A DNA stretch of 64,000 bases from an uncultured archaeon (lineage in GTDB: Archaea; Iainarchaeota; Iainarchaeia; Iainarchaeales; 1-14-0-10-31-34): the NCBI GenBank assembly GCA_964442255.1, contig CAYTYC010000002.1:730-64729 (forward strand), read 5' to 3'. Under the pieces are notes generated by a model. It saw only the letters and a program-made list of their open reading frames with translations, ran no database searches and was not told the origin of the DNA. Numbering within the stretch: position 1 is the first letter of the stretch; every line of letters starts with the position of its first letter. The translations under genes were made by a program, and so were the position numbers. Of the stretch, positions 14,286-49,941 are shown piece by piece.

Positions 14286-14294
14286 TTTTTTTTT

Positions 14295-23561: not shown

Positions 23562-25289
23562 TTGAATGTTTTGGGTATCTCAGCTGAATTTGTTCACGAC
23601 TCTGGTGCAGCGCTGGTAAAGGACGGAAAACTTGTCGCTGCGGCAGAAGAGGAAAGATTTTCGAGAAAAAAGCACGACTACTCCGCCCCGCTTGAATCCA
23701 TTAAATTCTGCCTAAACCAGGCCAACCTGACAATGGATCAAATAGATTTTGTGGCTGTTCCGTGGCTGCCGTTCAGTGCCTTCTCCTATGGAAATGTTTT
23801 CAGCTGGCTTTCCCGGGGAAGGGATGTCTGGCCTTTGGGGGCCCATTTTCTCTTAAACAAGGGGCTTAACTCCGCTGTTAAACTGTGGAAGTCAGGAAAA
23901 AACTCTAACCAGCTTGAAGTTGAAAAACTTTGCCAGGGCACTGTCGCCTATCTTTCAGAGCAATACCTTGACATTCCTGAAGTAAAATACTTTGAACACC
24001 ACAAAGCGCATGCAGCCAATGCATTCTACTGCTCCGGCTTTGATGATGCCTCAGTCATAAGTGTTGACGGAAACGGCGAGGCAAACGCAACTGTTGTCTG
24101 GAATGCGGACGGAAACTCAATCGAAAAAGTCAGGGAAGAGCTTTGCCATAATTCCTTGGGAATGTTTTACCTTACTGTAACAAATTTTTTGGGGCTTGGA
24201 AGGTTTGGGGAAGGCAAAACAATGGGGCTCGCAGCCTACGGAAAGAAAAACAAATCCCTGGAAAAAAGAATCCGTGAAAAAATAATTGACACCGAAAAAC
24301 CGGAATGGTACAAGCTTGGCTTCCCTTCTTTAACGTATGAATCAAACGCAATAAACAAACAGGTTTTGGGTTTTCCCAGCCGAACAAATGAATCCCCCCT
24401 TGGAAAAAATTATGCTGACTTTGCTTTTGCTTCCCAGAAGGCGTTGGAAAAGGCTGTTTCAAATATTGCGGAATGGGCTGTTGAAAAAACAGGCCGCCCC
24501 AATCTCTGCTTAAGCGGGGGGGTTGCCTTAAATTGCCTTGCAAACTCTGTTGCAATGAATTCACACAATGTAAACGGTTTTTTTGCTTTCCCTGCAGCAA
24601 ATGACGGCGGGACCCCTGTTGGGGCGGCACTGCTTTGCGCTGCAGAGCACGGAGAGAAAGTCAAGCACAAGATGGAGCATGCTTACTTTGGCCCAGCTTA
24701 CTCCAATAAGGAAATCGAAAATCTGTTAAAAAAAATTAAAGCCGATTACACTGAAAGCAGGGACATCTCAGGCGAGGTAGCGGAACTCCTTGCAAAAAAC
24801 AGGATTGTGGGCTGGTTTCAGGGCAGAATGGAGCTCGGACCAAGGGCTTTGGGGAACAGAAGCATTCTTTCAAATCCAACAAAAAAATCCACAAAAGACA
24901 AGGTAAACAAGTTAAAGGGGCGGGAGTTTTGGCGTCCTTTGGCTCCTTCCATGCCGGATGAAGCAAAAGAAGAATACTTGGAGGCTGCTGTTGAGTCCCC
25001 GTTTATGATTTTAAGTTTTAACATCAGGAAAGAAAAACTAAAAGAAATTCCTTCCGCCTCCCACGTTGACGGCTCCACCAGACCCCAAACAGTAAAGAAA
25101 AAATCCAACCCAAAGTATCACCGTCTTATAAAAGAGTTTGAAGGCTTAACCTCTGTTCCAGTTGTCTTAAACACTTCCTTTAATTTGAAACACGAGCCAA
25201 TTGTCTGCAGCCCTTTGGATGCTGTCCGGACATTTTACTCCTCCACACTTGACGCCGCCGCAATAGGGGATTTTTTGTTGTTAAAGTAA
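23562..25289 (+). CDS. NodU/CmcH-family carbamoyltransferase.
   Basis: The N-terminus MNVLGISAEFVHDSGAALVKDGKLVAAAEEERFSRKKHD is highly characteristic of the family. The 575-aa length also fits. Confidence 0.85.
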   Translation: MNVLGISAEFVHDSGAALVKDGKLVAAAEEERFSRKKHDYSAPLESIKFCLNQANLTMDQIDFVAVPWLPFSAFSYGNVFSWLSRGRDVWPLGAHFLLNKGLNSAVKLWKSGKNSNQLEVEKLCQGTVAYLSEQYLDIPEVKYFEHHKAHAANAFYCSGFDDASVISVDGNGEANATVVWNADGNSIEKVREELCHNSLGMFYLTVTNFLGLGRFGEGKTMGLAAYGKKNKSLEKRIREKIIDTEKPEWYKLGFPSLTYESNAINKQVLGFPSRTNESPLGKNYADFAFASQKALEKAVSNIAEWAVEKTGRPNLCLSGGVALNCLANSVAMNSHNVNGFFAFPAANDGGTPVGAALLCAAEHGEKVKHKMEHAYFGPAYSNKEIENLLKKIKADYTESRDISGEVAELLAKNRIVGWFQGRMELGPRALGNRSILSNPTKKSTKDKVNKLKGREFWRPLAPSMPDEAKEEYLEAAVESPFMILSFNIRKEKLKEIPSASHVDGSTRPQTVKKKSNPKYHRLIKEFEGLTSVPVVLNTSFNLKHEPIVCSPLDAVRTFYSSTLDAAAIGDFLLLK

Positions 25290-30562: not shown

Positions 30563-32359
30563 ATGCGTTTCGGGGAATTTTTCCGGTTTTCAAACAAAAA
30601 GTTTTTGCTCTTGTTTTTCTTCCTGCTTTTCTTTGTTTTCTTCCGCTTCCAGCCGATTCCCTTTAACGGAGACGATTTTGGTTACCTTACAACATACAAA
30701 ACCGTTTTCCCGGGACCAATTACGGCGGAAACCCTGGATGAATTAAGCCAGCTGAATGTCCTTCCCAGGCCTTTTGCTTTGCTTATTTTTTTTCCAATAA
30801 TTTTTCTCTTCGGCTTTGGCCCTTATGTTTTGGTTTACGCAATGCATTTTTCCGCTGTGGGGATAACCCTTGCAATGCTTTACCTGAATTTTAAGTTGTT
30901 CTCAAAGCGTTACGGCTTTAACACAGGGGCGCTCTCCACGTTTCTTCTTGCAACAACTTACACAACCTCTTATGTAATCGGCTACATTGGAACCCTTAAC
31001 ATCACGCTTAGTGCGGTTTACTGGCTGGCTTTTCTGTTACTTTTGAATTCCTTCAGTAAAACCAAAAACCTGCTTATCGCGTCACTACTGGTTGCGGTTG
31101 CGTTGTTTACGCGTGAGGCGATTGGAGTTGCTTTCCTTGCAGTTATTGTTTTCCTTTTGTTTGTGGATTTAATTAATTTCACCCAAAAAAAGCCAGGCGC
31201 AATCTCTTCTTTCATGGGGCTTGCAAAAAAGTACGCAATCCTTTTCCTTCCATTTATTGTTTTTTGGGCTTTTTTAACTATCTTCTTTGGCGGAATTGGG
31301 GGCTTCCAGCAGGGGATGATGGAGGAAAACTTTTTCCTGGCCGCAAAAGATTTTTTCCTTCCGCCCAATGAATCCGGAATACTCTATTATGCCACTTATT
31401 TCACCCAAAACTATTTGGCCCCAATTTTCCTGTTTGCCTTTGCGCTTCTCGCTTTTTCTTTTCTTCGTTCGCCTTCCTTCACCTTTCCTTCAGTTGGCTC
31501 TTTCATCAACCGCCACCTCTTTTCACTTGTTTTGCTTGCCTCGCTTGCGGGAATGGCTGTGCCAATTTTCTTGAATTCCCATGAAGCATTCAGATATTTG
31601 GCTCCGGTTCTTCCAATTATCTTTGTTTTCTTTTCCAAAATATTTTCCGACCACCTGCTCTCAAAACTGGATTCAATGCCTCTTAAGCTCTTGGCTTTGG
31701 GTTTTTTCCTTAACCTTGTTTTCTGGATTCTGTTCTTCAATGCATGGATTTTTTCCCCTGAAGCCGCAACACTTTTACTGAACATTTTTTTCTTTTTTAT
31801 TTTGGCGTTTTCCTTTTCTCCGATTTTTTTTGCATTGCTGAAAGGGCTTCCAAGAAAACAGCGCCTCCTGAATTCCGCTCTCGCGGTTCTGCTTGTCCTT
31901 CTTTCAGTTTCAGTCGTAGCTCAAGTGAATGAAGTTTACGGGGGCTTTTACTCCGTGCACTACACTAACTCCAAACTAGCCTTTGACTCCGGGCTTTTCA
32001 TTGCCTCTTCATTTCCTGAAAACTCCCGTGTTTTTACAGTGCAAGCGCATCCCTGGTTTTGGTGGGGCTCAATGAAGGCCCTTGGAAGGGAAGACACAAT
32101 TATCGTGCACAGGGTTCCTGAACCAAGTGAACTTAACCAAAAGGATTTTCTCATCCAAAACAGTATTGATGGAGGCAACTCTATCCAAAAATTTGTTGAC
32201 GAAAACCCCGAAAAATTCCGTGAACTAAAAAGCTTTGGTGAGGAGTACCGGTTCCATCCCCGGTCAACTTTAAGCGTCAAAATGCTTTCAGAAAAACTTC
32301 TGTTGTTTGAATTCTTCCGGGACAGGTCCCCGGAAATAATATTATTTGAAGTCAGGTGA
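30563..32359 (+). CDS. GT-C-fold membrane glycosyltransferase (putative).
   Basis: An N-terminal TM is followed by a loop-1 motif FNGDDFGYL (acidic DD at codons around 30671). There are more than 11 TM and a ~130-aa C-terminal soluble domain. Total 598 aa. Confidence 0.55.
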   Translation: MRFGEFFRFSNKKFLLLFFFLLFFVFFRFQPIPFNGDDFGYLTTYKTVFPGPITAETLDELSQLNVLPRPFALLIFFPIIFLFGFGPYVLVYAMHFSAVGITLAMLYLNFKLFSKRYGFNTGALSTFLLATTYTTSYVIGYIGTLNITLSAVYWLAFLLLLNSFSKTKNLLIASLLVAVALFTREAIGVAFLAVIVFLLFVDLINFTQKKPGAISSFMGLAKKYAILFLPFIVFWAFLTIFFGGIGGFQQGMMEENFFLAAKDFFLPPNESGILYYATYFTQNYLAPIFLFAFALLAFSFLRSPSFTFPSVGSFINRHLFSLVLLASLAGMAVPIFLNSHEAFRYLAPVLPIIFVFFSKIFSDHLLSKLDSMPLKLLALGFFLNLVFWILFFNAWIFSPEAATLLLNIFFFFILAFSFSPIFFALLKGLPRKQRLLNSALAVLLVLLSVSVVAQVNEVYGGFYSVHYTNSKLAFDSGLFIASSFPENSRVFTVQAHPWFWWGSMKALGREDTIIVHRVPEPSELNQKDFLIQNSIDGGNSIQKFVDENPEKFRELKSFGEEYRFHPRSTLSVKMLSEKLLLFEFFRDRSPEIILFEVR

Positions 32360-32966
32360 ATCTTTTTTTTGCTGTTTTCCTGAATTTTGTTATGTGGCTC
32401 AGGCACAGCCTGTAAAAGGGAAAAGGGACCTTTTTTGTTTCCCGTATCTCCAGGCCAAAAAGTGATTCAATTTCTTTTGGAGTGAATCGGTTCAAATGCG
32501 CGGGCACCCTTAAAGGAAACCTTAACACAAAAAGCCTTCCAAGCCGGAGGTTGGTTTCGTTTGGCGCGGAAATTACTATCTCTCCACTGTCCTTTGCAAC
32601 CCTCTTGATTTCCTTTATGGCTTTCCTGTAATCCTTTACGTGCTCCAAGACTTCAGAGCACACCACTGTGTCAAATGTTCTGCTTTTGAAGGGCAGTTTT
32701 GAGGCATCCGATTTAACCAAAAGGAATGTTTTGTTTTTTTCTTTTGCCTTTATTAGCTTCTCTTCCAGTGGGTCAATTCCGAAACGTTTTCCCTTAACTT
32801 TGATTAAAAAAAAACCTTCCCCGCAGCCTACATCCAGGATTTTTCCCTTCGGCTTAACCATTTTTGCCACTTCATTCAGCCTCTGGTTGTGGAAAAACTT
32901 GATTAACGGGTTTCTTGCGTTGTAGACGTCCTTGTCCTGGTCTGATTCAATTGCCCTTTCTTCCAT
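32352..32966 (-). CDS. Class I SAM-dependent methyltransferase.
   Basis: Motif I is ILDVGCGEGFFLIKV and motif II is DTVVCSEVLEHV. The ORF track extends to 33113, where it would overlap the divergent GT2. The internal ATG (MEERAIE...) at 32966 is preferred. Confidence 0.75.
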   Translation of the reverse strand: MEERAIESDQDKDVYNARNPLIKFFHNQRLNEVAKMVKPKGKILDVGCGEGFFLIKVKGKRFGIDPLEEKLIKAKEKNKTFLLVKSDASKLPFKSRTFDTVVCSEVLEHVKDYRKAIKEIKRVAKDSGEIVISAPNETNLRLGRLFVLRFPLRVPAHLNRFTPKEIESLFGLEIRETKKVPFPFYRLCLSHITKFRKTAKKRFT

Positions 32967-33035
32967 GCTTCCGATAATTTTTAACGTCAATCTGTTTTTT
33001 ATTCTTTTGTGGCTTATTTGCTCTGGGTTGTTTTC

Positions 33036-33743
33036 ATGGATAAAAGCCTGAGCATCATCATTCCGGCCTACAACGAGGAAAACAGGGTTCTTCCCACAAT
33101 AGAATCGTATCATTCTTTTTTTTCCCGCAAATTCAAGGACTTTGAGTTGATTGTTGTGTGCAACAACTGCTCTGATTCAACCCCTAAAAAAGCGGAACAG
33201 GTCAGCAGAAGATTAAAAAATCTCAGATGCCTGAATTTTCCTTTTTACACAGGGAAAGGCGGCGCGGTTTACAGGGGTTTTGATGCCGCAAGCGGCGAAA
33301 TGCTTGGGTTTACTGACGCGGACAACTCCATCCCTCCGGAAGAATTTGAAAAAATTGTGAAGGCCTTGTCTGAAGGCAATGCGGATGCCGCAATCGGTTC
33401 CCGTGCATTAAGGAATTCAGTGATAGAAAAAAGACAGCCTCCCCACAGGGTCTTCAGCGCAAAGGCTTTTAGCTTGCTTGTTAACCTGATGTTTTCTTTG
33501 GGAATCCCTGACACCCAATGCGGGGCAAAGGCATTCAAAAAAACCGCGGTAAAAAAAATTAAAAATTCTTTAAAGTCTACGGGCTGGGAGTTTGATGTGG
33601 AGCTTTTATGGAAACTGAAAAAAAATGGCTTTAAAATAAGGCAGGTTCCGGTTAAGTGGACCGATTCAGAGGAAACAAAGTTCAGTTTTTCTGCGGTTCC
33701 GGGAATGTTTTTTAGCCTGCTTAAAATAAGGCTCGGCCTTTGA
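33036..33743 (+). CDS. Dpm1-like GT2, a polyprenyl/dolichyl-phosphate hexosyltransferase.
   Basis: It has LSIIIPAYNEENRVLPTIES...ELIVVCNNCSDST...FTDADNS (DxD). The ~235-aa soluble GT-A is typical of Dol-P-Man/Glc synthases. Confidence 0.8.
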   Translation: MDKSLSIIIPAYNEENRVLPTIESYHSFFSRKFKDFELIVVCNNCSDSTPKKAEQVSRRLKNLRCLNFPFYTGKGGAVYRGFDAASGEMLGFTDADNSIPPEEFEKIVKALSEGNADAAIGSRALRNSVIEKRQPPHRVFSAKAFSLLVNLMFSLGIPDTQCGAKAFKKTAVKKIKNSLKSTGWEFDVELLWKLKKNGFKIRQVPVKWTDSEETKFSFSAVPGMFFSLLKIRLGL

Positions 33744-33749: not shown

Positions 33750-35183
33750 CTACGAAAAAGCCCGGATCATTTTCAGCCCCTGAATGTTTCTTTTGATGTC
33801 TGTCCATCCCCGTATCTTCAGAATCCTTTTAAGTACATAATTTGGCCGCAAATAAAATTTCCTGAACGCCTTTTTTTGGAGTTCCTTTATTTCCTCAATG
33901 CTTTTGTATCCGTGGGGAATGAAAACAGGCTCCCAAATGCTGTACTTGTCAAAGTCTTCAATCAGTTTTCCGTATTTTTTTGCGTCCTCGTAAAGCTGTG
34001 TCCCGGGAAAAGGGGTTGTGATGCAGAACTGCGCGTAATCCACGTCAAGTTCAACTGCAAAGTCAATTGTTTTTTCCGCAAGTTCAGGCGTTTCTCCCGG
34101 CAACGCAAGCATGAAGGAGCCCCTCGCCTCAATTCCGGCTTCTTTTGTCAGCTTCACCGCCTTCCTTATCTGCTCCGGGTTTGTCCGCTTGTTTATTATG
34201 TCCAACAGCTTTTGGCTTCCGCTTTCAATTCCGTAAAAAATGTTCCAGCACCCGGCTTCCTTCATTTTATCCAAAAGCCCTTTGTCAACAGTATTCACCC
34301 TGCCGTAACAGCTCCAAGTCAAGTCCAGTTTTTCTTTAATCATCAAATCGCATAATTCATGGAGCCATTTTTTGTTTGCTGTGAGGGTGTCGTCCCAGAA
34401 GGAAATTTCTTTTATCCCGAATTCTTTAATGATTCGCTTCATTTCTTCCACTGCCTTGAAAGGGCTTCTTGCCCGTATTTTTCTTCCAAACATTGAGTGG
34501 CTTGAGCAATAAGTGCAGTTGTATGGGCATCCCCTGATTAAAACCATGTTCGCCACTGGCTTTCTTTTGTACTGGTTTGGAAGAGGCAGATACTTTTCCA
34601 TTGGCAGGAGCTCCCTTGCCGGAAACGGAAGCTTGTCTAAATCTTCTATGAGCTCCCTTGGCTTTGTTTTAACTATTTTTTCCCCTGACAAAAAATAGAT
34701 TCCATCAATTTTTTTGAGCTTCTCCTTTTTTTCAATTATTTTTTTGTCCCGCTTTAATTCGCTTAAAAGTTCCGTGAAAGTTTTTTCGCCTTCCCCGTAA
34801 ACCAGGACATCAAAAACCCCTTTTTTCATTACCTCTTCCGGCAGGATTGTTGCATGGTGTCCCCCGACAACAAGAACAATTTCCGGAAACCTTTCCCTCA
34901 GCTTCTCTGCGAGAAAAAGTGTTCTGTTAAAGGTCGGCGTCAAAGAGGAAAACCCGACAACCATTGGCCTGAGTTCCGCTATTTTTTCCAGCACGCCTTC
35001 CATTGAAAGCCCTAAAACAGGGGCATCCAGAATTCCTGCGCTGAAGCCCTCTTCTTTCAGCACGGCTGCAAGCGTGGCGAGCCCCAATGGAGGCATATGC
35101 CCCCCGACATCCCCAACCCCGTGAGCATATCTTTCATCTATTGAAATGGGGGGAAAAACCAGCAGGCAGTCCAGCATACCCAC
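33750..35183 (-). CDS. Class B (B12-binding) radical SAM enzyme.
   Basis: An N-terminal cobalamin-binding Rossmann-like domain (VLVVGGHHAT...) is followed by a radical SAM core with CPYNCTYC (CxxxCxxC). Length is 477 aa. Confidence 0.85.
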   Translation of the reverse strand: MGMLDCLLVFPPISIDERYAHGVGDVGGHMPPLGLATLAAVLKEEGFSAGILDAPVLGLSMEGVLEKIAELRPMVVGFSSLTPTFNRTLFLAEKLRERFPEIVLVVGGHHATILPEEVMKKGVFDVLVYGEGEKTFTELLSELKRDKKIIEKKEKLKKIDGIYFLSGEKIVKTKPRELIEDLDKLPFPARELLPMEKYLPLPNQYKRKPVANMVLIRGCPYNCTYCSSHSMFGRKIRARSPFKAVEEMKRIIKEFGIKEISFWDDTLTANKKWLHELCDLMIKEKLDLTWSCYGRVNTVDKGLLDKMKEAGCWNIFYGIESGSQKLLDIINKRTNPEQIRKAVKLTKEAGIEARGSFMLALPGETPELAEKTIDFAVELDVDYAQFCITTPFPGTQLYEDAKKYGKLIEDFDKYSIWEPVFIPHGYKSIEEIKELQKKAFRKFYLRPNYVLKRILKIRGWTDIKRNIQGLKMIRAFS

Positions 35184-35216: not shown

Positions 35217-37196
35217 ATGCCAGTTGTTTTGATGGAAAGCCGGCGTTCATCCAGGAAAATCTTTTTCTTTTTTTTAGTTTGGCTTTTTTTATTTTGCGCT
35301 TCATTTTTGTTTTTTGGGGCCTCGGTTGACAACTTTTTTGTGAGCGACGATTTCCTGCTTCTTGACTACGGAAAAAACTTTTCCATTGAAAAATTTTTTG
35401 AACCCCTTCTTGACTCCTATTTCAGGCCGTTTTTGGGCTTCCTTTACTCAACCCTGCTGTTTTCCTTTGGCCTGGAGCCTTCATACTACAGGCTCTTCGC
35501 AATCTTAATGCACTCGGTTAACGCCTTCCTTGTTTTCCTTTTTGCAAGAAAAATCCTGAAAAACAGCCTGCCTTCTTTTTTTGCCTCCTTTTTCTTCCTG
35601 GTTTTCTTCCTCAATTACGAGGTTTTGTTTCAGGTAAGCACATTAAACGAAATATTTCTTTTCTTTTTTTCAATCCTTTCACTTTTGTTTTTTGCACATT
35701 ACCTTGAGCACAAAAGAAAAGCTTTTTACGCCTTTTCTTTTGCCTTTTTTTCCCTTGCTTTGCTGACCAAGGAGTCGGCTGTGATACTTTTCATTATTTT
35801 TATTTTGTTTGAGTTTTTTTTCCACTCCAAAGGGAAGCTTTTTTCACAAACCAGAAAAAGGGCCCTGCTTTTTGCGCCCTTCTTTTTTGCGGCCCTGCTT
35901 TCAGCTTCCCTCAAGGCATTATTGGCGCCTTTTTACGGGGAAGCGCCCCACCTATTCTTCTATTTGTTGTTCTACAGGGACGCGCTTGCATTCCTTTTGC
36001 TTCCGGCGCCTGACCTGCTTGTTTTCCTTGTGCAGTCGTCAGTTGACTTTCCATTTCGTTTTGCAGCAGGAATCCTGTTCATTGTTTTTTTTCTCGCATT
36101 AAATTACTTTGTTTTCTTCAGGTCGCGAAAACCGGCGTTTAAATTCTCCCTGCTTTGGATTTATTTTACCCTGCTTCTGCCGCTTGCTTTTGGCTCACCG
36201 CAGGCACGGTACTTTTATCTGCCGTCTGCCGGCTCTTCAATCCTGATTGGATACTTTTTATGGTGGCTTATAAAATCAAGTGCCTTGACTCAAAGAAAGC
36301 TTGATGCAAAACGTTTTGCGGGAATTGTTTTTTCTGCGGTGGTGATTGTCCTTATTGTTGGTTCAAGTTTTGTGTACACCTGGCAAAAGGAAAGCGAATG
36401 GGATTCAGCCGGAAAAATCTCTGAATCAACCCTTGCTGAGGCGTCAGCACATTTAAGCTATTCCCCTGAAGCCCCTGTGTTTTTCGTTTATGAAAGGGAT
36501 TCCTTTGAAGGGATTTTCTTTTTTGACCGCGTGCTGGTCTGGAGAAACGGATTTGAGGAAGCCATGGAACTCTTCCATGGAATTTCACCGGAATGGCGGG
36601 AAAAATTTTCTTTAAGCGAGGTTTTCTGTGAAAACCCGGAGCCAAAACAAGGAAAGCTTTTTTTGCTCTTCAATTCAAGCGAAAAAAAAGCCAAGAAAAT
36701 TGAGTGCATCAGGAAAGGCGAAAACATTCTTTCAAACCCGGGCTTTGAAATTGCGGAAAACGGAAAACCTGTGGGCTGGACAGGCAAAGTAATCCAGGAC
36801 AATTCAAGGGCTTTCTCCGGAAACTCAAGCGGATTAATTGCAGCGGGTTTTTTCCCTGAAGAAAAAGCGTTTTCCGTGGATTACCCCACGGGCAAAAGCC
36901 ACGCATACTATCTCCTGTCTGCAAAGGCTTTTGGCGAAGGTTCTCGCCCGCAAATGCATTTATTCGGGAAAGGCAAACTTTACTCTGGCTTTCTCTTAAA
37001 CTTTGATTTGCCTTACTGGGAAATCCTGTGGTTTAACATTAGAGGGGAAAGCGGATGGTTTAAGGCGGAAAAAATAGTTGAGGTTCCGCCTGAAGCAGAT
37101 TCCATTTACATCAGGCTTGACAACGACGGCTCAGGAAAAGTATGGTTTGACGAAGTGGAGTTAAGAAAAATAGAACCAGTTTTTGGGGATTCCTGA
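35217..37196 (+). CDS. GT-C-fold membrane glycosyltransferase with a C-terminal extracytoplasmic beta-sandwich (CBM4/9-like) domain.
   Basis: An N-terminal TM is followed by a loop-1 motif VSDDFLLLDYG (D44/D45, about 35346). There are more than 10 TM. The C-terminal ~160 aa (about 36715-37190), ILSNPGFEIAENGKPVGWTG...VWFDEVELRKI, resembles a carbohydrate-binding module. Confidence 0.55.
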   Translation: MPVVLMESRRSSRKIFFFFLVWLFLFCASFLFFGASVDNFFVSDDFLLLDYGKNFSIEKFFEPLLDSYFRPFLGFLYSTLLFSFGLEPSYYRLFAILMHSVNAFLVFLFARKILKNSLPSFFASFFFLVFFLNYEVLFQVSTLNEIFLFFFSILSLLFFAHYLEHKRKAFYAFSFAFFSLALLTKESAVILFIIFILFEFFFHSKGKLFSQTRKRALLFAPFFFAALLSASLKALLAPFYGEAPHLFFYLLFYRDALAFLLLPAPDLLVFLVQSSVDFPFRFAAGILFIVFFLALNYFVFFRSRKPAFKFSLLWIYFTLLLPLAFGSPQARYFYLPSAGSSILIGYFLWWLIKSSALTQRKLDAKRFAGIVFSAVVIVLIVGSSFVYTWQKESEWDSAGKISESTLAEASAHLSYSPEAPVFFVYERDSFEGIFFFDRVLVWRNGFEEAMELFHGISPEWREKFSLSEVFCENPEPKQGKLFLLFNSSEKKAKKIECIRKGENILSNPGFEIAENGKPVGWTGKVIQDNSRAFSGNSSGLIAAGFFPEEKAFSVDYPTGKSHAYYLLSAKAFGEGSRPQMHLFGKGKLYSGFLLNFDLPYWEILWFNIRGESGWFKAEKIVEVPPEADSIYIRLDNDGSGKVWFDEVELRKIEPVFGDS

Positions 37197-37239: not shown

Positions 37240-38103
37240 ATGTTTCCTGTTATGGCCAAAAACGCTGTTTCCGTTGTAATGCCCGCATTTAACGAGGAAA
37301 ACGCTGTTTCAGGCGTGATTTCAGGGGTGAAGAAAGCCCTCAAAGGCTTTACCCATGAAATAATTGTTGTGGATGACGCCTCCACTGACCGGACAGCGCG
37401 GGCAGTCGGAAAAAAAGCCCTTCTCCTCAGCCACACCCAAAACCGCGGATACGGCGCAAGCATTAAAACAGGAATTAAAAAAGCAAAACACGAATGGATT
37501 CTCATAATCGACGCTGACGGCAGCTACCCAACCGAAGCAATCCCAAAGCTGTTGCCTTTCGCAGGAACATTTGATATGGTTGTCGGGGCGAGAACAGGAA
37601 AAAAAGTTAACGCCCCGTTAATCAGGAAGCCCGCAAAATGGTTTCTTACAAAACTTGCAAACTATCTCACAGGCACAAGAATCCCTGACCTTAACTCCGG
37701 GTTAAGGCTGTTCAGGAATGAAAGTGCATTGAAGTTTTTTTCCATTCTCCCAAACGGCTTTTCCCTTACCTCAACAATCACGATTGCCTTTCTTTCAAAC
37801 GATTTTTCAGTAAAATATGTTCCAATAGACTACCTTAAAAGAAAAGGCAAGTCCAAAATCAGCCCAATAAAGGACACAGTGAATTTTACTTTGCTTATTC
37901 TCAGGGCAATAACCTATTTCAGGCCCCTGAAAATTTTTCTCCCTGTTTCTTTTGTGTTATTTGTTTTGGGTTTTATTTACGCCCTTTACATCGGGTTTTT
38001 CAGGGGCCAGCTGCCTGACTCTTCTGTTTTGCTTATGGTAATGGCGGTGCAGTTTTTTTTCCTCGGGCTGATTGCGGATTTGATGTCAAAAAACAGGGGC
38101 TAA
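37240..38103 (+). CDS. GtrB/ArnC-like GT2 (polyprenyl-phosphate sugar synthase) with a C-terminal TM hairpin.
   Basis: It has VSVVMPAFNEENAV...IIVVDDASTDRT...IIDADGS, plus two C-terminal TM helices. Total 287 aa. Confidence 0.8.
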   Translation: MFPVMAKNAVSVVMPAFNEENAVSGVISGVKKALKGFTHEIIVVDDASTDRTARAVGKKALLLSHTQNRGYGASIKTGIKKAKHEWILIIDADGSYPTEAIPKLLPFAGTFDMVVGARTGKKVNAPLIRKPAKWFLTKLANYLTGTRIPDLNSGLRLFRNESALKFFSILPNGFSLTSTITIAFLSNDFSVKYVPIDYLKRKGKSKISPIKDTVNFTLLILRAITYFRPLKIFLPVSFVLFVLGFIYALYIGFFRGQLPDSSVLLMVMAVQFFFLGLIADLMSKNRG

Positions 38104-39063
38104 GTGGCTGGAAAAATGGGAAATAAGACAAAAGTCCTGCTTTCAGGAACAATAACCGCGGTTTTGGTTTTTTTTCTGCTGACCCAATTCAATGCCCTCA
38201 AAACGGTTGAGTTAATCTCCAATATTTCGCCTGCCTGTATTGCTTTGGCTGCAGCAATATACTTTTTAATAACCCTTTCCAAGGCTTTGAGGTTCAGGCT
38301 CTTGCTTGGGCCTGACCTGAAGGTAACCGGGCTTTTCAAGATTGCCTCAATCCACACCCTGTTCATAAACCTTCTTCCCTCCAGAACCGGGGAGTTAAGC
38401 GGGCTCTATCTTTTAAGGAAGCATAATGTTTCCCTTGCAAGTGCGACCTCTGCTTTGGTTGCCTCACGGGTTTTCGATTTTTTTGCGCTTTCAGGAATAT
38501 TTTTTGCGGTGGTTTTGCTCCTTCCGGAACTCCCTGAATTAATTTCAAGGGCCATTTTTTTGGTTGCGCTTTTGGTTTTCATGCTTTTCTTTATTGTTCT
38601 TCTCATTTTGTATTTCGGGGAAAAAGTTGTTTTTTTGCTTATAAAATTTTTTCCCAAAACCGGCTTGCGGGAAAAACTCGGAAACCTGCTTCTGGAAGTG
38701 GTTCACGCTTTTAGGGTAATAAAGTCAAAAGATATCCTGTTTTCGGTTTTCCTGGTTTCCGTTGTGAGGTGGCTGCTGCTCATATCCTTTATTTTTGTCG
38801 TTTTGCAGGGCATGATGGTGGATGTTACGCTTCTCATTGTTTCCATTGCCACTTCTTTTCTGAAACTTCTCGACTTCATTCCTGTACAGGGCCTGGCAGG
38901 CTTTGGAACCGTTGAAGGGTTTTACTCAATTGTTTATATTTCGCTTGGAATGGGGAAGCAAACAGCCCTGGCTTCAGGCTTTGCATACCATCTGTTGTTG
39001 TTGGCTTACTCAATTGTTTTCGGATTGTTTTGCATTTTCTTGGAAAGGAAAAAAGTTTTCTAG
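38104..39063 (+). CDS. UPF0104/MprF-flippase-domain-like polytopic membrane protein, a putative lipid-linked sugar flippase.
   Basis: 319 aa and 8 TM. Its start abuts the stop of the GtrB-like GT2, the same arrangement as GtrA/flippase partners. Confidence 0.45.
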   Translation: MAGKMGNKTKVLLSGTITAVLVFFLLTQFNALKTVELISNISPACIALAAAIYFLITLSKALRFRLLLGPDLKVTGLFKIASIHTLFINLLPSRTGELSGLYLLRKHNVSLASATSALVASRVFDFFALSGIFFAVVLLLPELPELISRAIFLVALLVFMLFFIVLLILYFGEKVVFLLIKFFPKTGLREKLGNLLLEVVHAFRVIKSKDILFSVFLVSVVRWLLLISFIFVVLQGMMVDVTLLIVSIATSFLKLLDFIPVQGLAGFGTVEGFYSIVYISLGMGKQTALASGFAYHLLLLAYSIVFGLFCIFLERKKVF

Positions 39064-40571
39064 CGCTTTTGCGCAAGGACTGTCGCCATGTTCGGTCTTT
39101 TCCCCGGAAAAAGGTCGGAAAGCAGGATAAGGGGGTAAATGAAAGGGAAAACAATAAGCTGAAGCAATGGGTTTAAGCGGTAATAGTATTTGTTTGCCAG
39201 GTCCCTGGTTTCAATGAATTCGTAATCCAGAACCCTGAAGCCGTTTTTTTCCAGAACCTTTTTCAGGCGCATGAAATTGTATCCGCTCCTGAAGTGCCCT
39301 GCTTTTCTTTCGTGTTCTTCGGAGATTATTCTCCTTGTGTCAGAGTCAACGCATAACACAAGGAATCCTTTGTCTTTCAGGAATTTCGGGAACTCGCTGA
39401 AAACAAGTGCATCGTTTTTAATGTGGCCCATGAGGTTTGACGCAAGAACGCAGTCAAATTTTTTTCCCGGCGAAAACCTTTTCTCCAGGTCAGCATATTT
39501 GAATTCCACGTTCAAACCGTGTTTTCTTGCAACAGTCCTTGCAACCTCTATCCTCTTTAAGTCGTTGTCCACGGCCAGAACGCTTGCCTTGAATTTGTCG
39601 GAAATAAGCACAGCAATGTCCCCGATTCCGCAGCCCAAATCCAGCACGCTTTCAAACGGCGCGGCCTTTTTGAAGTGCTTAAGCATGCTTTTGACCCTTA
39701 AGCGCTTGAAAACAAGCGGAGGGCCTATTACATTCAGGTAAAGTTTCAGCAGGGGCTTTGGGATTTTCTTTTTTGTTGCCAGCACATTTGAGACGTAAAG
39801 CTTGTTCCTTATTTTCTTGAAGTTTATCCTGCCCTCGGATTTTTTCCTTTTGAATCCGATTCCCCCGACTTTTTTTGTGAAAATCCTGTCAGGCTTTCCG
39901 TACAGCTTGAAGTTTATTTTGAAGAAAAGGTGGTAAAGCGAGGTAAGCGCCTTTGCCGGGTAATTCAATGGGTTGCTGTACAGGACATAATAGTCTATCG
40001 GAAAAACCTCTGCATCCTTGAATCCCTTGAACCTGAAGATTTGCTTGAGGCTGTAGCCCGTGAAAAAAGAGTAATGGTCAACGTTTTGGTGCGGCGCAAC
40101 AGGGCCTATAAGGGGATTTGCGGGGTTAAGGGAATTCACCAGAAAGGCTCCGCCTTCCCTCAGGCTTTTTTTTGCAAGGTCAAGCAATAGGAGGACTTCC
40201 TTTTTTGTCAGGTGGTTGAGTTCCTGTTCCGCGAAAATGAAGTCAAATTTTTCCCTGTTTTTTGCAAGAAAGTCTAAGGAATCCCCTGTCTTGCAGGCAA
40301 AGCCCTTGAATGATGCGTACTCTGTTTTTTCGCTGTCCGCATCCATTCCCAAAGCGTTTTTGTAGCCAAGCTTTTTCAGGAAATTCAGGAAGTATCCATG
40401 CCCGCAGGACATCACAAAAATTCTTGCGTTCTTGTCTTCAGGCAAAAACCTTGCGTAGTTTTTCCTGTAAAATTTGTAAAACAGGCGGTAGTCGCTTTCA
40501 ACATTGCCTGTTCCCTCACAAAAGCTTGTGAACGGCCTGAACTCCGCTGTCAGCTTCATTTCTTTCCCCAC
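39060..40571 (-). CDS. Tandem-domain class I SAM-dependent methyltransferase.
   Basis: Two separate motif I regions are present: ARIFVMSCGHGYFLNFL in the N-terminal half and VLDLGCGIGDIAVLIS in the C-terminal half. Confidence 0.7.
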   Translation of the reverse strand: MGKEMKLTAEFRPFTSFCEGTGNVESDYRLFYKFYRKNYARFLPEDKNARIFVMSCGHGYFLNFLKKLGYKNALGMDADSEKTEYASFKGFACKTGDSLDFLAKNREKFDFIFAEQELNHLTKKEVLLLLDLAKKSLREGGAFLVNSLNPANPLIGPVAPHQNVDHYSFFTGYSLKQIFRFKGFKDAEVFPIDYYVLYSNPLNYPAKALTSLYHLFFKINFKLYGKPDRIFTKKVGGIGFKRKKSEGRINFKKIRNKLYVSNVLATKKKIPKPLLKLYLNVIGPPLVFKRLRVKSMLKHFKKAAPFESVLDLGCGIGDIAVLISDKFKASVLAVDNDLKRIEVARTVARKHGLNVEFKYADLEKRFSPGKKFDCVLASNLMGHIKNDALVFSEFPKFLKDKGFLVLCVDSDTRRIISEEHERKAGHFRSGYNFMRLKKVLEKNGFRVLDYEFIETRDLANKYYYRLNPLLQLIVFPFIYPLILLSDLFPGKRPNMATVLAQKR

Positions 40572-41644
40572 CCTGGGACAACGTTATTGTACAGGTATGC
40601 AAGATTTTTAAAGGTTTGAGGGATGCAGCTTTCACACGGCAGGTAAGGCCGTTCTTTCATTTTGGTTTTTTTCCTTAACTCAACATATTTTTTGTTGTTC
40701 CACACTCCCTCAAATCCGTCCCTTAAAACATTCCCCAGAATTCCTTCCCCGCGTTTCCACACAAACATCTGGCACGGTCTTACATCCCCGTTGAATTCAA
40801 TGTAAGTGTGCGTCCAAGGAAAATGGCACACCCTTCCGGTGTCCCGGAATTCTTCTGCCGGCCGCATTTTGTTGTAGTACATCCCCAAATCCCTTAAAAG
40901 AATCGGAATGTTTGTTTTCACTTTCAAAGTGTTTGCTTTTTCAAGGCCTTTTTCCAGTTTTTCCTTTAGTTCATTGAATGAAAGGTTTCCGACAACAACC
41001 TTTTTTTTGTATTCCATGTTCACGAACTCCATGTACTGCACGTAAACGGCCTTTGCCCTAAAATCCTTTGCCATCCCGACCACTTCATCCAGTTCATCCA
41101 AATTGTCCCTTTGGAGAGCGAAGTTCAGCCTGAGCTCGGGCTTTTCCAGCCCGTGCTTTTCCTTGAATTCCTGGAGCTTCCTTATGTTTTCGGTTACCAA
41201 CTCAAAGCAGTCTATTCCGCGGATTTTTTTGTAGTTTTTTTTGTTTGAGGAATCAATTGAAACCTTTACCATGTCCAGCCCGCTTCCGCAGATTTCCTTT
41301 ATCTTGTCCCCAACAAGGGTAAAATTGGTTGCAAGCCCAACCGGAATTCCTTTGGATTTTGCGTATGAAACCATTTCCAAAAAATCCTTGTTCAGGAATG
41401 ACTCCCCCATTCCCGTAAGGTTTAAGGTTGCGGGCTTAACCTCGTCCACTATCTTTTTGAATTCCTTCAGTGACATGAAACCCGGGTTTTTTATTGTTTC
41501 CCTGTGGTTGCACATCTGGCATCTGGAGTTGCAGGCGTTTGTGACCTCAAGCTGCAGGTACAGCGGCCTGTTCGGCGCCTTCGCAGGCTTGAACAAAAAA
41601 GAGTAAGCTGTCAAAAGAATGTTCTTTATTTTGTTTAAATTCAT
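40556..41644 (-). CDS. Radical SAM enzyme with a C-terminal SPASM/twitch domain.
   Basis: The core has CNSRCQMC (CxxxCxxC). A C-terminal Cys cluster reads C...CQMF...G...GN...CESC. It overlaps the upstream GT4 by 4 nt (ATGA). Confidence 0.8.
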   Translation of the reverse strand: MNLNKIKNILLTAYSFLFKPAKAPNRPLYLQLEVTNACNSRCQMCNHRETIKNPGFMSLKEFKKIVDEVKPATLNLTGMGESFLNKDFLEMVSYAKSKGIPVGLATNFTLVGDKIKEICGSGLDMVKVSIDSSNKKNYKKIRGIDCFELVTENIRKLQEFKEKHGLEKPELRLNFALQRDNLDELDEVVGMAKDFRAKAVYVQYMEFVNMEYKKKVVVGNLSFNELKEKLEKGLEKANTLKVKTNIPILLRDLGMYYNKMRPAEEFRDTGRVCHFPWTHTYIEFNGDVRPCQMFVWKRGEGILGNVLRDGFEGVWNNKKYVELRKKTKMKERPYLPCESCIPQTFKNLAYLYNNVVPGWGKK

Positions 41645-42792
41645 TTTCCCGTGCCCCGCGAACTTTCATATATTTTCAGGTAATCCAATGCAACCTTCTT
41701 CCAGGTAAGCTTTTCAACCGCCTTCTTTCGGTTTTCTTTCCCCATTTTTTCCCTCATCCCAGTGTCTTCAGCCATTCTCTGCAGTGCGTCAGCGAGTTCC
41801 CCTGAATTCTCGGGCTCAACAAGCAGCCCGTTGACATTGTTTTCAACTGTTTCCGGAATGCCCATTGCATTGCTTGCCACTATGGGCAAGCCGCATGCCA
41901 TTGACTCCGCAAAAACCAGCCCAAAGGACTCCGCAAGCGAGGGAAGGACAAACACATCCGCTTCCCTGTAGGCTTCCGGCAGCCCTTCCCCTTTAATGTA
42001 TCCCCTGAAAAAAACCGCATTCCTTAAACCAAGTTTTGCGGAAAAACTTTCCAGTTCTTTTTTGTGCGCGCCTTCACCGTAAATGTCCAGGCGAATGTTT
42101 TCAAGGCCTTTTTCTTGCAGCATTTTAACTGCCTCCAGAAGGTATTCTATTCCTTTCCTTTTTGTGAGCCTTGTGGTGCAAACCAGCCTGAAATTTTTTG
42201 AATGAACTTTTTTCAGGGGCCTGAATTTTTTGGAGTCAATTCCGTTGCCTATCACAGCGTAATCAATTTCCGGAACAAATTCCTCTGCAAGTTTTTCCAG
42301 CCCCCTGCTTAAGGCCACAACTTCTGAGGCTTCTTTCCACACCCCTCTGTTCACCGGCCTCAATATTCCGTGCTGCAACCCATACCCTGATTTATCGTAT
42401 CCGGGAACATCGGAGCCGCGCAATGAAACAATGTAATTTTTCCCGTAAAGCTTTTTCCCGAGCCACGGAATTATTCCGGTGGGGACACTGAAAAAGGCGT
42501 GCACTGCATCGTACTCCTTTTCCTTTAAGAGTTTCCTGTATTTCAGGAACCCGTTGAAGACATAAAGCGCCATTCCCAGACTGCCGCTGTCATGGATTCC
42601 TTTTCTTTTCATCCCGGCCCTGTAAACATTAATGCCTTCAGTTTTTTCCAGTTCCCTGAATTTTCCCGTGCCTCCTGTCAGGATGTCAACCTCATGCCCT
42701 AATTTTGCCAGTTCCCGCCCGATGTTGTAGGTTGCCCTGCCTGCGCCTCCCCCGACAGGCGGAAACTCCGGGTTAAGCAAAAGAATGCGCAT
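41641..42792 (-). CDS. Family 4 (GT-B) glycosyltransferase.
   Basis: The N-terminus is MRILLLNPEFPPVGGGAGRATYNIGRELAKLGHEV. The C-terminus ESFGLVFAESMACGLPIVAS is E-x7-E-like. Confidence 0.85.
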   Translation of the reverse strand: MRILLLNPEFPPVGGGAGRATYNIGRELAKLGHEVDILTGGTGKFRELEKTEGINVYRAGMKRKGIHDSGSLGMALYVFNGFLKYRKLLKEKEYDAVHAFFSVPTGIIPWLGKKLYGKNYIVSLRGSDVPGYDKSGYGLQHGILRPVNRGVWKEASEVVALSRGLEKLAEEFVPEIDYAVIGNGIDSKKFRPLKKVHSKNFRLVCTTRLTKRKGIEYLLEAVKMLQEKGLENIRLDIYGEGAHKKELESFSAKLGLRNAVFFRGYIKGEGLPEAYREADVFVLPSLAESFGLVFAESMACGLPIVASNAMGIPETVENNVNGLLVEPENSGELADALQRMAEDTGMREKMGKENRKKAVEKLTWKKVALDYLKIYESSRGTGK

Positions 42793-42889
42793 TTTTGGCT
42801 CCTCTTACCATTCTTTGGGCTGTTATCATTTTAAAAGTTTAAACACCCTTCCTTCTTTTAGGGGTTTTTTGGTGGGGCTGCCTGAAGTT

Positions 42890-44392
42890 TTGAAGCGGAA
42901 CAGGACCGCGTTTTTGCTGGCATTTTTTTTCCTTTTCTATGCTTTTTCACTGAACGGCTTTCTCGGCGCAAACGGCGACGACGCAAATTACGCGATTCTT
43001 GCAAAAGCCCTGGCTGAAGGAAAAGGCTACACTGACTTGCAGTCTCCGGGGCAACCGTTCCATGCGCACTTTCCGCCTGTTTTTCCCCTTCTTATTTCCC
43101 CGTTGGTTTTTTTCTTTGGTCTGAACTTTTTTGCGGTGAAGTTTTTGGTTTCCTTTATCGCAGTTTTGGTCCTTTGCCTTGTCTTTATTTTCTTCAAAAG
43201 GCACTGCTCGGAAAACCTTGCAATCGCGCTCACAGCCCTGTTGGGCTTTTCCCCTCTTTTCTTTTCCTATTCCCACCAGGTGATGGCTGAAATTCCGTTC
43301 ATGTTTTTTGCCTTCCTTTCCCTGTTTTTTTTCGCGAAATTCACTGAAACCAATTCCCGAAACTTTTTCGCGTTTTCCCTGTTGTTTGTTTTGCTTGCAT
43401 TTTTCACCAAGCTTACTGGAATCACTTTTGTTGCCGCACTTCTTTTCGTTTCCTTCCGTAAGGGAATGCTTAAGGACAGGAAAAACCTTTTTCTCGCTTC
43501 TTTGGCGGTTCTTGCCGTTGTTTTCTGGTTTTTTGTTGGAACCCTTGCCCCGGGAAACCCAACCCAGCATTACCTTGAGCTCGCGGCGGTTTCAGACCCA
43601 AGGGACACGGACTTGGGCAGTGTCGGTGTGGAAGGCTTTTTTTCCAGGGCAATCCACCATGCACTGTTTTATGTTTCAAACACCGCCTCAAACCTTTTCC
43701 CGGGATACAATTCCTTTTTCCCGCATTCAAGCATTTTAAGGCATTTCCTTTCCCCACTGATTTTCGCCCTGGTTTTAACCGGTTTTCTCAGTTCACTGCA
43801 CCGGAAAGCCGAGCTAAAGGAAGTCTATTTTCTCTTTTACTTTGCCTTGCTTATTTTTTTCACGAGCTTTGAAGAAAGATACCTCCTTCCGCTTCTGCCT
43901 TTCCTGTTTTATTACTTTTTCACCGGAACGGGGTTTTTGCTGGGCAAACTGAATTTTTCTTTGGGCCTGAAGAAAAACATTCCAAGGTTTTTTTTCCTTT
44001 TGATTCTTTTTCTGGGGGTAATTGCCTCTGCAGGCATTTTTTTGCAGGAAAGGAACCCGAATTACGTTGAAGAAGTCCAAGGCCAGGGCTGGCACAATTA
44101 CCTTAAGGCAGCGGAATGGGCAAAGCAAAACACGCCTGAAGATGCCGTGATTGTAGCAAGGAAACAAAACAACTTTTACATTTACTCCGGGAGAAAGGCT
44201 TTCCATTTTTTCTTCGGCAGCGATGAGGAAAGAATCCTTTCCGAGTTTGAGGAAAAAGGCGCTGGCTTTGTTGTGGTGGACGAATTCAACCTTGAAACAA
44301 AAAAATTCCTTGAGCCTGTGGTCAGGAACAACCCTGAAAGGTTTTCCCTTGTAAAGGAATTCGGGGAAACCCGAATCTACGAATTCACCTGA
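42890..44392 (+). CDS. GT-C-fold glycosyltransferase, PMT_2/ArnT-like (GT39/GT83-type).
   Basis: The loop-1 motif NGDDANYAILAKALAEGKGY (D65/D66, about 42977) matches the PMT_2 pattern DxxxYAxxAxxxxxxG. There are more than 10 TM and a C-terminal soluble domain. The track starts at ATG 42785; the TTG at 42890 (MKRNRTAFLLAFFF) is preferred. Confidence 0.55.
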   Translation: MKRNRTAFLLAFFFLFYAFSLNGFLGANGDDANYAILAKALAEGKGYTDLQSPGQPFHAHFPPVFPLLISPLVFFFGLNFFAVKFLVSFIAVLVLCLVFIFFKRHCSENLAIALTALLGFSPLFFSYSHQVMAEIPFMFFAFLSLFFFAKFTETNSRNFFAFSLLFVLLAFFTKLTGITFVAALLFVSFRKGMLKDRKNLFLASLAVLAVVFWFFVGTLAPGNPTQHYLELAAVSDPRDTDLGSVGVEGFFSRAIHHALFYVSNTASNLFPGYNSFFPHSSILRHFLSPLIFALVLTGFLSSLHRKAELKEVYFLFYFALLIFFTSFEERYLLPLLPFLFYYFFTGTGFLLGKLNFSLGLKKNIPRFFFLLILFLGVIASAGIFLQERNPNYVEEVQGQGWHNYLKAAEWAKQNTPEDAVIVARKQNNFYIYSGRKAFHFFFGSDEERILSEFEEKGAGFVVVDEFNLETKKFLEPVVRNNPERFSLVKEFGETRIYEFT

Positions 44393-49176: not shown

Positions 49177-49941
49177 ATGAAACAGAAAAAGATTGCTGTC
49201 TTTATAATTGCCTACCAAGCGGTGACCACACTTATTTCCGCGATTGACAGGATTCCCCCGGGTTTGATGAAAAAATCCAGAGAAATTTATGTTTTCGATG
49301 ACTGCAGCAATGACAACACCTACTATGCGGGAATAGGCTACAAGTGCCTCAATAAGCTTAACAAGCTGAATGTTTACAGGAACAAGAAAAACCTCGGCTA
49401 CGGCGGAAACCAGAAAAAAGGCTACAATTACGCCATCAGGAAAGGCTATGACATTGTTGTAATGCTTCACGGGGATGTGCAGTATGCCCCGGAAAAAATA
49501 CCTGAATTAATTGCCCCCCTGGAAAAAGGCGAAGCCGACATGGTTTTCGGTTCAAGGATGAAGGGAAACCCCAGGAAAGGCGGAATGCCCCTATGGAAAT
49601 TTTTTGGGAACAAGTTTCTTACTTTCGTTGAAAACAAGGCCCTTGGGCTTAACCTTTCAGAATTCCATTCGGGTTTCAGGGCTTACTCTTGCGGGGCGCT
49701 CAAGAAGCTTCCATTCAACAAAATAACAGACGACTACTACTTTGACACCGAAATATTCATTCTCCTGAAAGAGAAAGGAATGCGGATAAGGGAAATCCCT
49801 ATCCCCACCCACTACGGGCCTGAGTCACATAAAATAACTTTCACGAAATCCGTCAAATATGGTGCAAACATCCTTAAAACTCTGACCAGGTATGTGCTGC
49901 ACAAGAGGGGCATAATAACCGTTGAAAAATTCAATGTTTAA
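49177..49941 (+). CDS. Family 2 glycosyltransferase.
   Basis: It has IAVFIIAYQAVTTL...YVFDDCSNDNT...VVMLHGDVQY. GT-A fold. Confidence 0.8.
   Translation: MKQKKIAVFIIAYQAVTTLISAIDRIPPGLMKKSREIYVFDDCSNDNTYYAGIGYKCLNKLNKLNVYRNKKNLGYGGNQKKGYNYAIRKGYDIVVMLHGDVQYAPEKIPELIAPLEKGEADMVFGSRMKGNPRKGGMPLWKFFGNKFLTFVENKALGLNLSEFHSGFRAYSCGALKKLPFNKITDDYYFDTEIFILLKEKGMRIREIPIPTHYGPESHKITFTKSVKYGANILKTLTRYVLHKRGIITVEKFNV

Follow-up and report, generated by a model that had tools for sequence, protein, structure and literature searches.

What might a radical S-adenosylmethionine (SAM) enzyme with a vitamin B12-type domain be doing amid the glycosyltransferases of an uncultured archaeon? The question is raised by a stretch of 64,000 nucleotides from an uncultured member of the Iainarchaeota (assembly GCA_964442255.1, contig CAYTYC010000002.1, positions 730 to 64,729), referred to below as the window, in which such a gene lies at 33750..35183 on the minus strand between a Dpm1-like family 2 glycosyltransferase (GT2) and a glycosyltransferase of the GT-C class. 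A first-pass annotation, made from the letters of the DNA, had described the product as a class B radical SAM enzyme and had taken its surroundings to suggest a C-methylated or otherwise radically modified sugar in the glycan. In the reading that we favour, and to which, whatever its exact chemistry, we assign a probability of roughly 0.5, the protein would be a cytoplasmic tailoring enzyme that acts on a polyprenyl-phosphate monosaccharide within a three-component glycosylation module of the AglD/AglS type. The first-pass annotation had named beforehand an unconserved synteny as an outcome that would speak against a link to glycans; we find the pair of Dpm1-like GT2 and GT-C kept next to the enzyme across dozens of loci in archaea and bacteria.

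The open reading frame (ORF) comprises 477 amino acids (aa) from a GTG codon, and its likely true start is the ATG at 35177, two codons in, which yields the 475 aa also found in an identical database protein; exact copies of the protein were found on one NCBI contig and one Logan contig only. The product is soluble and contains no hydrophobic transmembrane (TM) segment. In the Pfam scan, residues 23-140 match PF02310 (B12-binding) with an E-value of 4e-25 and 88.4 bits against a cutoff of 32.1, and residues 214-376 match PF04055 (Radical_SAM) with an E-value of 3e-28 and 99.4 bits against a cutoff of 29.5. The motif CPYNCTYC corresponds to C219-x3-C223-x2-C226 and is the sole CxxxCxxC motif of the protein. 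Pfam, motif and fold match thus confirm a class B radical SAM enzyme with a cobalamin-type N-terminal domain, whereas the anticipated pairing of Radical_SAM with B12-binding_2 holds in its first half only, the N-terminal domain being PF02310 and not the B12-binding_2 cap domain. An AlphaFold (AF2) model built on 24 family members, with a mean predicted local distance difference test score (pLDDT) of 92.4 and a predicted TM-score (pTM) of 0.90, shows a Rossmann (beta/alpha) N-domain followed by a partial TIM barrel, with helices making up the C-terminal domain. Among 76 orthologs C219, C223 and C226 are invariant (100%), and GGxH, T82, D53 and D125 of the N-domain are conserved to at least 95%. 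Three further cysteines outside the CxxxCxxC motif, C278, C292 and C312, are conserved to 92-100% in the same set and align with cysteines of AprD4; they might form an auxiliary site or serve as hydrogen-atom donors.

For the analysis of the gene neighbourhood, ORFs were called in 80 loci carrying an ortholog and labelled by their best match to the window proteins. Direct phmmer searches with the GT-C and PF03706 proteins of the window against the neighbours in the related loci gave no match; the unlabelled neighbours were identified by clustering, a Pfam scan of representatives and rebuilt hidden Markov models (HMMs), by which those of ~500-800 aa proved to be GT-C proteins of the PMT_2 or YfhO type and the TM proteins of ~310 aa to be members of PF03706. 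Within three genes of the ortholog, 52 of the 80 loci hold any GT2, and 40 of the 80 (73% of the loci with full context, defined below) hold one whose best window match is the GT2 at 33009-33743. A GT-C of the PMT_2 or YfhO type is found at the same distance in 40/80 loci and directly adjacent in 25/80, GT2 and GT-C occur together in 30/80, and one or the other is present in 62/80. An extra divergent paralog of the enzyme (28/80), a class I methyltransferase (19/80) and PF03706 (6/80) complete the recurrent surroundings within three genes. The frequency of the GT2 with best match to 33009-33743 and of the GT-C depends strongly on distance: together they occupy 29% of the directly adjacent positions and 1-5% of positions 6-8.

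The picture sharpens in the full-context set, made up of the 44 loci in which the ortholog has four or more genes to either side; neighbours were counted here within four genes. There GT2 is present in 84% of loci, GT-C in 59%, both in 52% and either in 91%, as opposed to 16% for glycosyltransferase family 4 (GT4) and 18% (8/44) for the NAD-dependent epimerases/dehydratases of nucleoside diphosphate (NDP) sugars. The enzyme is therefore linked specifically to the lipid-phosphate-sugar pair and not to glycan clusters in general. The similarity between orthologs also correlates with that between the neighbouring GT2, GT-C and methyltransferase proteins (Mantel r = 0.39-0.50, p = 0.001), which lends weak support to a functional link, as shared species phylogeny contributes to such correlations as well.

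Domain fusions point in the same direction. In two relatives of ~812 aa (P0017 and P0041) an N-terminal PF03706 membrane domain with 8 TM helices is followed by the B12 domain and then by the radical SAM domain, and in a third of 774 aa from Paceibacterota (P0047) a class I methyltransferase precedes the B12-radical SAM part. By its fusion with PF03706 the enzyme comes to lie at the membrane, beside a domain predicted to flip lipids.

The family behind these loci is large and crosses domain borders. At E ≤1e-20, 4393 proteins match the enzyme, the best 120 of which are 52-61% identical over the full length. Orthologs with 43-60% identity were detected in 80 loci in a scan covering one genome per species, and clustering united 88 ortholog sequences from 81 loci in a single coherent group. 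Archaeal hosts belong to Nanoarchaeota, Woesearchaeota, Pacearchaeota, Aenigmatarchaeota, Altiarchaeota, Iainarchaeota, Methanobacterium, Methanosarcinales and Nitrososphaerales, and bacterial hosts to Patescibacteria, Scalindua, Omnitrophota, Elusimicrobia, Nitrospirota, Desulfobacterota and Pelagibacteraceae. As 43-60% identity is retained across both domains in a patchy distribution, the sequences point to horizontal spread of the family; a scan of viral contigs revealed no relatives there. Four of the loci carry, at about 5-14 kb, arrays of 3-5 divergent B12-radical SAM paralogs (24-48% identical to the window protein) beside the ortholog and, together with the frequency of extra paralogs given above, these arrays suggest multi-step radical tailoring in the paralog-bearing clusters. 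Within the 64-kb window no paralog of the enzyme was found.

By sequence the protein clearly belongs to the B12-domain radical SAM superfamily but to no named family, since it reaches no curated NCBIfam cutoff, a behaviour shared by 24/24 family members tested. The best-scoring curated family is BchE (TIGR02026; 236.9 bits against a cutoff of 481, residues 18-448, best E-value 1e-75 among the 24 members), followed by HpnJ (TIGR03471; 226.3 bits against 578, residues 33-466, matched by 24/24 members with a best E-value of 3e-75). Lower scores were obtained for ApyD (201 bits against 750), the P-methylases (139-154 against 575-600), the ladderane-lipid radical SAM enzyme (135 against 360), BzaD (132 against 450), the glutamine methylase of methyl-coenzyme M reductase (MCR; 130 against 360), HpnR (120 against 650) and AprD4 (NF033070; 112.9 against 500, radical SAM half only). 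Assignments to BchE, HpnJ, AprD4, ApyD, PhpK and the ladderane enzyme were rejected, as all of them remain far below their cutoffs. The gene hence does not fall in with the named lipid or cofactor class B families, a grouping that the first-pass annotation had regarded as contrary to a glycan role. Among solved structures AprD4 (6FD2) is the top match both by sequence (2e-27, residues 180-405) and by fold (TM-score 0.74, full length), and the subsequent fold matches are MgmA (9ccb, second best), TsrM, OxsB, CysS and TokK.

How could such an enzyme work together with its neighbours? GT-C enzymes work on the outer face of the membrane with polyprenyl-phosphate sugars as donors, and GT2s of the Dpm1/AglD/ArnC type make these donors on the inner face. 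Radical SAM enzymes require cytoplasmic SAM and reductant, so a radical step would have to precede the flipping of the lipid-linked sugar. We infer the following order: the Dpm1/AglJ-like GT2 would attach a monosaccharide to dolichyl or undecaprenyl phosphate on the inner side of the membrane, the radical SAM enzyme would abstract a hydrogen atom from this lipid-linked sugar and modify a ring carbon, the UPF0104 (PF03706) flippase-like protein would carry the modified lipid-sugar across the membrane, and the PMT_2 or YfhO-type GT-C would pass it to a surface glycan or glycoprotein. Taken further, the genes may represent a mobile cross-domain cassette whose radical enzyme directly attacks C-H bonds of a dolichyl- or undecaprenyl-phosphate monosaccharide to give a C-methylated, carbocyclic (cyclitol-like) or deoxygenated product, an extension that we advance tentatively and rate slightly below an even chance. 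With the same reserve, the GT-C of this cassette could install the product on the surface glycans of DPANN archaea, bacteria of the candidate phyla radiation (CPR), anammox bacteria and SAR11.

In the window itself, the claimed location of the enzyme between a Dpm1-like GT2 and a GT-C gene is upheld by the PF00535 and PMT_2 matches of the flanking ORFs. The GT2 at 33009..33743 (+), a putative polyprenyl-phosphate sugar synthase of the Dpm1/AglJ/PpgS type, matches Glycos_transf_2 (PF00535, 1e-28) and contains PAYNEE and DAD motifs; among the NCBIfam models it comes closest to AglJ, PpgS and Dol-P-hexose transferase, in each case below the equivalog cutoff. The radical SAM gene converges on it, with 6 bp separating the two stop codons. 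On the other side the gene diverges, across an AT-rich spacer of 39 bp, from the GT-C of the PMT_2 type at 35217..37196 (+; PMT_2 3e-07, 31.3 bits against a cutoff of 26.1), which has at least 10 hydrophobic TM segments and a DD pair at residues 44-45, right after TM1, as the acidic motif of the first outer loop. A second GT2 follows at 37240..38103 (+), with PF00535, a DAD motif and two C-terminal TM helices (TM at 227-283), most similar to AglJ (119 bits) and also to Dol-P-hexose transferase, ArnC and PpgS, again below equivalog cutoffs. Next to it and ~3 kb from the radical SAM gene, the UPF0104/PF03706 flippase-like membrane protein at 38104..39063 (+) matches PF03706 at 6e-28, passes TIGR00374 with 63.6 bits against a cutoff of 43.2 and is the equivalent of the AglD C-terminal domain and the MprF flippase domain. 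All parts of a three-component module are thus present in the window, namely a DxD-type GT2 (both genes), a GT-C with acidic motif and a UPF0104 flippase-like protein. A class I SAM methyltransferase, a frequent accessory of the cassette, is encoded at 32352..32966 (-), divergent from the GT2 at 33009..33743.

These genes are part of a glycan island of at least 44 kb that extends from ~20 kb to the window end (64 kb) and in which at least 9 GT2 genes, 7 of the GT4 type and at least 4 PMT_2 GT-C genes are accompanied by 5 class I methyltransferases and 3 Wzx/MurJ-type flippases as well as a carbamoyltransferase, a polysaccharide deacetylase and an unrelated radical SAM-SPASM protein. At ~20000 the G+C content drops from 0.47-0.50 (1-20 kb) to 0.41-0.45 (20-64 kb), a step that fits a horizontally acquired or fast-evolving surface-glycan region. 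As further pairs of GT2 and PMT_2 GT-C occur without a radical SAM gene at 49177-51549, 57534-59458 and 42785-44392, the island contains several parallel lipid-phosphate-sugar modules, only one of which includes the B12-radical SAM enzyme.

Several other genes of the island deserve mention in their own right. The carbamoyltransferase at 23562-25289 (+) is of the NodU/CmcH type and the deacetylase at 20334-21131 (-) is a DUF2334/polysaccharide deacetylase, the two of which, by their family assignments, imply that the same glycan(s) probably include sugars that are carbamoylated and others that have lost N-acetyl groups. The radical SAM-SPASM protein at 40556-41644 (-), unrelated to the B12-domain enzyme, carries the motif CNSRCQMC and finds its best NCBIfam match in the tungsten-cofactor oxidoreductase maturase (147 bits against a cutoff of 380). 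Its gene overlaps and is translationally coupled with the one at 39060-40571 (-), which encodes 503 aa with two methyltransferase-domain stretches in the Pfam scan, and homologs of the SPASM protein occur near the B12-radical SAM ortholog in two related loci.

Several genes in the left 20 kb of the window speak for an archaeal host, namely those for a FlaI-like ATPase and its T2SSF partner, for a PAC2 chaperone of proteasome assembly, for an M42 peptidase and for an energy-coupling factor (ECF) transporter. At 13392-16625 (-) the FlaI-like secretion ATPase and two T2SSF-like membrane proteins form an assembly locus resembling those of archaeal type IV pili or archaella; pilins and archaellins are common glycosylation targets. 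A 1508-aa ORF at 6744-11270 (+) has no Pfam or NCBIfam match, and the sole match of a 664-aa protein at 17378-19372 (-) is a Dicty_CTDC repeat; the two could be displayed on the cell surface and would then be candidate targets of glycosylation. No tRNA or Rfam match was found in the window.

Does the enzyme bind cobalamin? Its N-domain aligns with cobalamin-bound crystal structures (TsrM with query residues 30-389, OxsB with 34-359, TokK with 71-231) and with the HpnR, PhpK and BzaD models. On the strength of these alignments and of the conservation of GGxH and the other N-domain positions, cobalamin is likely bound. A review offers no sequence motif diagnostic of cobalamin use (PMC13331322). 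The 64-kb window contains no cobalamin uptake gene that we could find. The ECF module at 3835-6135 (+), the only vitamin transporter in the window, is complete, with S component, fused double ATPase and CbiQ/EcfT component; the nearest relative of its S component is RibU, which binds riboflavin (3P5N, 1e-7), and the module provides no evidence for B12 uptake. SAR11 (Pelagibacteraceae) single-cell genomes contribute nine of the ortholog loci, with 44-48% identity and usually an adjoining GT2, which is notable in a group not commonly counted among the users of cobalamin.

Regarding the chemistry, we consider C-methylation the most probable single outcome, at somewhat less than an even chance, because methylases make up most of the class B enzymes that have been characterised, the B12 domain seems genuine and several paralogs often occur per cluster. 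It is not assumed, as neither BchE nor HpnJ nor AprD4 is a methylase and many hosts are not known to make cobalamin. The methylase models tested (HpnR, PhpK, KedN5 and the C-methyltransferase of ribosomally synthesised and post-translationally modified peptides) all score below BchE and HpnJ. A ring contraction to a carbocycle as proposed for HpnJ and Cds is clearly less probable, a dehydration/deoxygenation or epimerisation in the manner of AprD4 is less probable again, and other chemistry takes the remainder. Of the modified sugar suggested by the first-pass annotation, the glycan context therefore stands, while the specific C-methyl group becomes one of several options.

A number of observations weigh against the proposed action on a lipid-linked sugar. 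The flippase-like family PF03706 was detected near the ortholog in only 6/80 loci, fusions with PF03706 number no more than two, each on a short contig, and 4/44 full-context loci have neither GT2 nor GT-C nearby. The island contains GT2/GT-C pairs devoid of a radical SAM gene, so that the co-location may partly be a by-product of a dense glycan island, and in the window the genes lie on alternating strands and so not in a single operon. AprD4, the closest solved structure, carries no cobalamin in its B12-like domain, showing that the fold can lack it, and many of the hosts (DPANN, CPR, SAR11) are not known to produce cobalamin. The evidence for the pathway as a whole is comparative genomics.

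With these points in mind, four other explanations have to be weighed. The chief one, which we still regard as unlikely, is that a soluble nucleotide sugar such as a C-methyl or deoxy NDP-hexose is modified upstream of the GT2 and that the enzyme has no particular tie to the lipid-linked intermediate. Sugar-tailoring enzymes in glycan clusters mostly act in this way, the enzyme is soluble and has no TM segment, AprD4 as best structural match acts on a soluble aminoglycoside sugar, and the epimerases/dehydratases in 8/44 full-context loci would suit such a pathway. The association with GT2/GT-C (91%) is, however, far above that with NDP-sugar enzymes (18%) or GT4 (16%), and fusions to an 8-TM UPF0104 domain are hard to explain with a soluble substrate. 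Unlikely as well, and ranked just after it, is the remodelling of a membrane-glycolipid headgroup as by HpnJ or Cds, in which the GT2 would be a lipid glycosyltransferase, UPF0104 would flip the finished glycolipid and the GT-C would be a bystander. HpnJ is indeed among the two best family matches (226 bits, 24/24 members, best E-value 3e-75), Cds acts on a hexosyl glycerol dialkyl glycerol tetraether (GDGT) to give calditol, and known headgroup systems pair a glycosyltransferase with UPF0104, as in GpgSDF and HexSDF (PMC12713373) or hpnIJKL. The deacetylase at 20334-21131 would fit a system of this kind but lies 13 kb off. The HpnJ score is less than 40% of its cutoff and no better than that of BchE, and the GT-C as user of lipid-phosphate sugar donors is the commonest directly adjacent gene (25/80 loci), which weakens this reading. 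Furthermore, many of the hosts (DPANN, CPR) are not known to make their own lipids.

A substrate other than a sugar is rather improbable. It could be the polyprenyl carrier or a lipid chain, by analogy to HpnR/HpnP and the GDGT-modifying radical SAM enzymes, or a peptide or protein, by analogy to ApyD and Mmp10/MgmA, with the glycan context being indirect. Significant sub-threshold matches to ApyD (201 bits), the ladderane-lipid enzyme (135), the MCR glutamine methylase (130) and HpnR (120) can be cited for it, as can the rank of 9ccb, an MCR glutamine methylase, as second-best structure and the fact that proteins can be glycosylated by PMT-type GT-Cs. None of these models reaches its cutoff, however, the conserved partners handle sugars, and neither precursor peptides nor genes of lipid synthesis were observed in the conserved neighbourhood. 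That the enzyme has no functional link to its neighbours at all, being one of many B12-radical SAM paralogs that pile up by coincidence in variable surface-glycan islands, we consider very improbable: the islands are dense in GT2 and GT-C genes and diverse paralogs do share the same clusters, but the GT2 and GT-C frequency decays clearly with distance from the ortholog, the pattern is kept across phyla and both domains of life despite the patchy distribution, and domain fusions exist.

Tailoring of a polyprenyl-phosphate monosaccharide by a radical enzyme, the reading we retain, would have several consequences. Systems of GT2, flippase and GT-C are a general route to decorate cell-surface polymers. 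The known tailoring of lipid-linked monosaccharides is limited to ordinary polar chemistry; the steps described at this stage, deformylation by ArnD and epimerisation by DprE1/E2, are non-radical. In a full-text literature search, no publication was found in which GT2/flippase/GT-C modules are associated with a radical SAM enzyme, and while the module type is known, its combination with a radical SAM enzyme appears to be undescribed. If the proposal is true, glycosylation would for the first time be seen to include a radical tailoring reaction while the sugar is still on its lipid carrier, a step that would surprise specialists in glycobiology or radical SAM enzymology, and the protein would be the founding member of a new functional family of class B radical SAM enzymes. 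It would widen surface-glycan chemistry to C-methyl, carbocyclic or deoxy residues that resist glycosidases, and would give a function to a family of thousands of members that are now annotated generically or wrongly as 'BchE-like cyclase'. If cobalamin is used as well, ultra-small symbionts (DPANN, CPR) and SAR11 would spend a scavenged cofactor on surface decoration. The tight family and the simple cassette of three or four genes make the proposal directly testable.

Comparison with known systems helps to place the enzyme. BchE shares the B12 plus radical SAM architecture and gives the top curated score, but this score is under half the cutoff, the context lacks tetrapyrrole or photosynthesis genes and the hosts are non-phototrophs; the database label 'cyclase' on members of the family is an over-annotation. 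AprD4, a radical SAM 1,2-diol dehydratase acting on paromamine (PDB 6FD2), resembles the enzyme as top solved-structure match and in being active on a sugar, whereas it uses no cobalamin, converts a soluble antibiotic intermediate and works with a partner reductase. The cobalamin-dependent sugar C-methylases GenK, GenD1, Fms7 and MoeK5, which were compared by description only, have the class B architecture in common with it and methylate unactivated sugar carbons, though in antibiotic pathways and not in surface-glycan modules. The substrate of MoeK5 is a lipid-phosphoglycerate-linked sugar. MoeK5 is listed in PMC12931638.

The three-component modules ArnC/ArnT, GtrB/GtrA/Gtr*, CsbB/GtcA/YfhO and AglD with UPF0104 and a PMT/STT3-like protein share their parts with the window and the related loci; unlike the cassette described here, none of those in the literature was found with a radical SAM enzyme. 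Makarova, Galperin and Koonin showed UPF0104/PF03706 to be homologous to the MprF flippase domain and to form the C-terminal domain of AglD, and described a conserved archaeal gene neighbourhood in which UPF0104 is accompanied by an AglD-like GT2 and a PMT/STT3-like GT-C, with no mention of a radical SAM partner (PMC5898192). The flippase activity of UPF0104 is only predicted in the literature (PMC12713373, PMC5898192). GpgSDF and HexSDF likewise unite UPF0104 with a glycosyltransferase and a deacetylase in systems that build glycolipid headgroups (PMC12713373).

The closest precedent for the logic of the cassette is the hopanoid (hpn) cluster. Genetic evidence only suggests that HpnJ performs a ring contraction on the hopanoid-linked glucosamine installed by the GT2 HpnI (bacteriohopanetetrol-glucosamine), and Cds performs an analogous reaction on GDGT lipids (PMC13459092). 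HpnL of the same cluster belongs to the AglD/UPF0104 family, and HpnJ is found only in genomes that also encode SHC and HpnH (bioRxiv 10.1101/2025.07.29.667474). No hopanoid genes (shc, hpnH, hpnI, hpnK) were found among the window ORFs scanned. HpnJ and our enzyme are alike in their two-domain architecture and in a significant full-length similarity (residues 33-466), and the logic proposed for the cassette matches that of the hopanoid cluster, with a lipid glycosylated by a GT2, a remodelling of the sugar by a B12-type radical SAM enzyme and a UPF0104 protein as partner. The difference lies in the partner, which here is a GT-C and implies a polyprenyl-phosphate sugar donor in place of a hopanoid.

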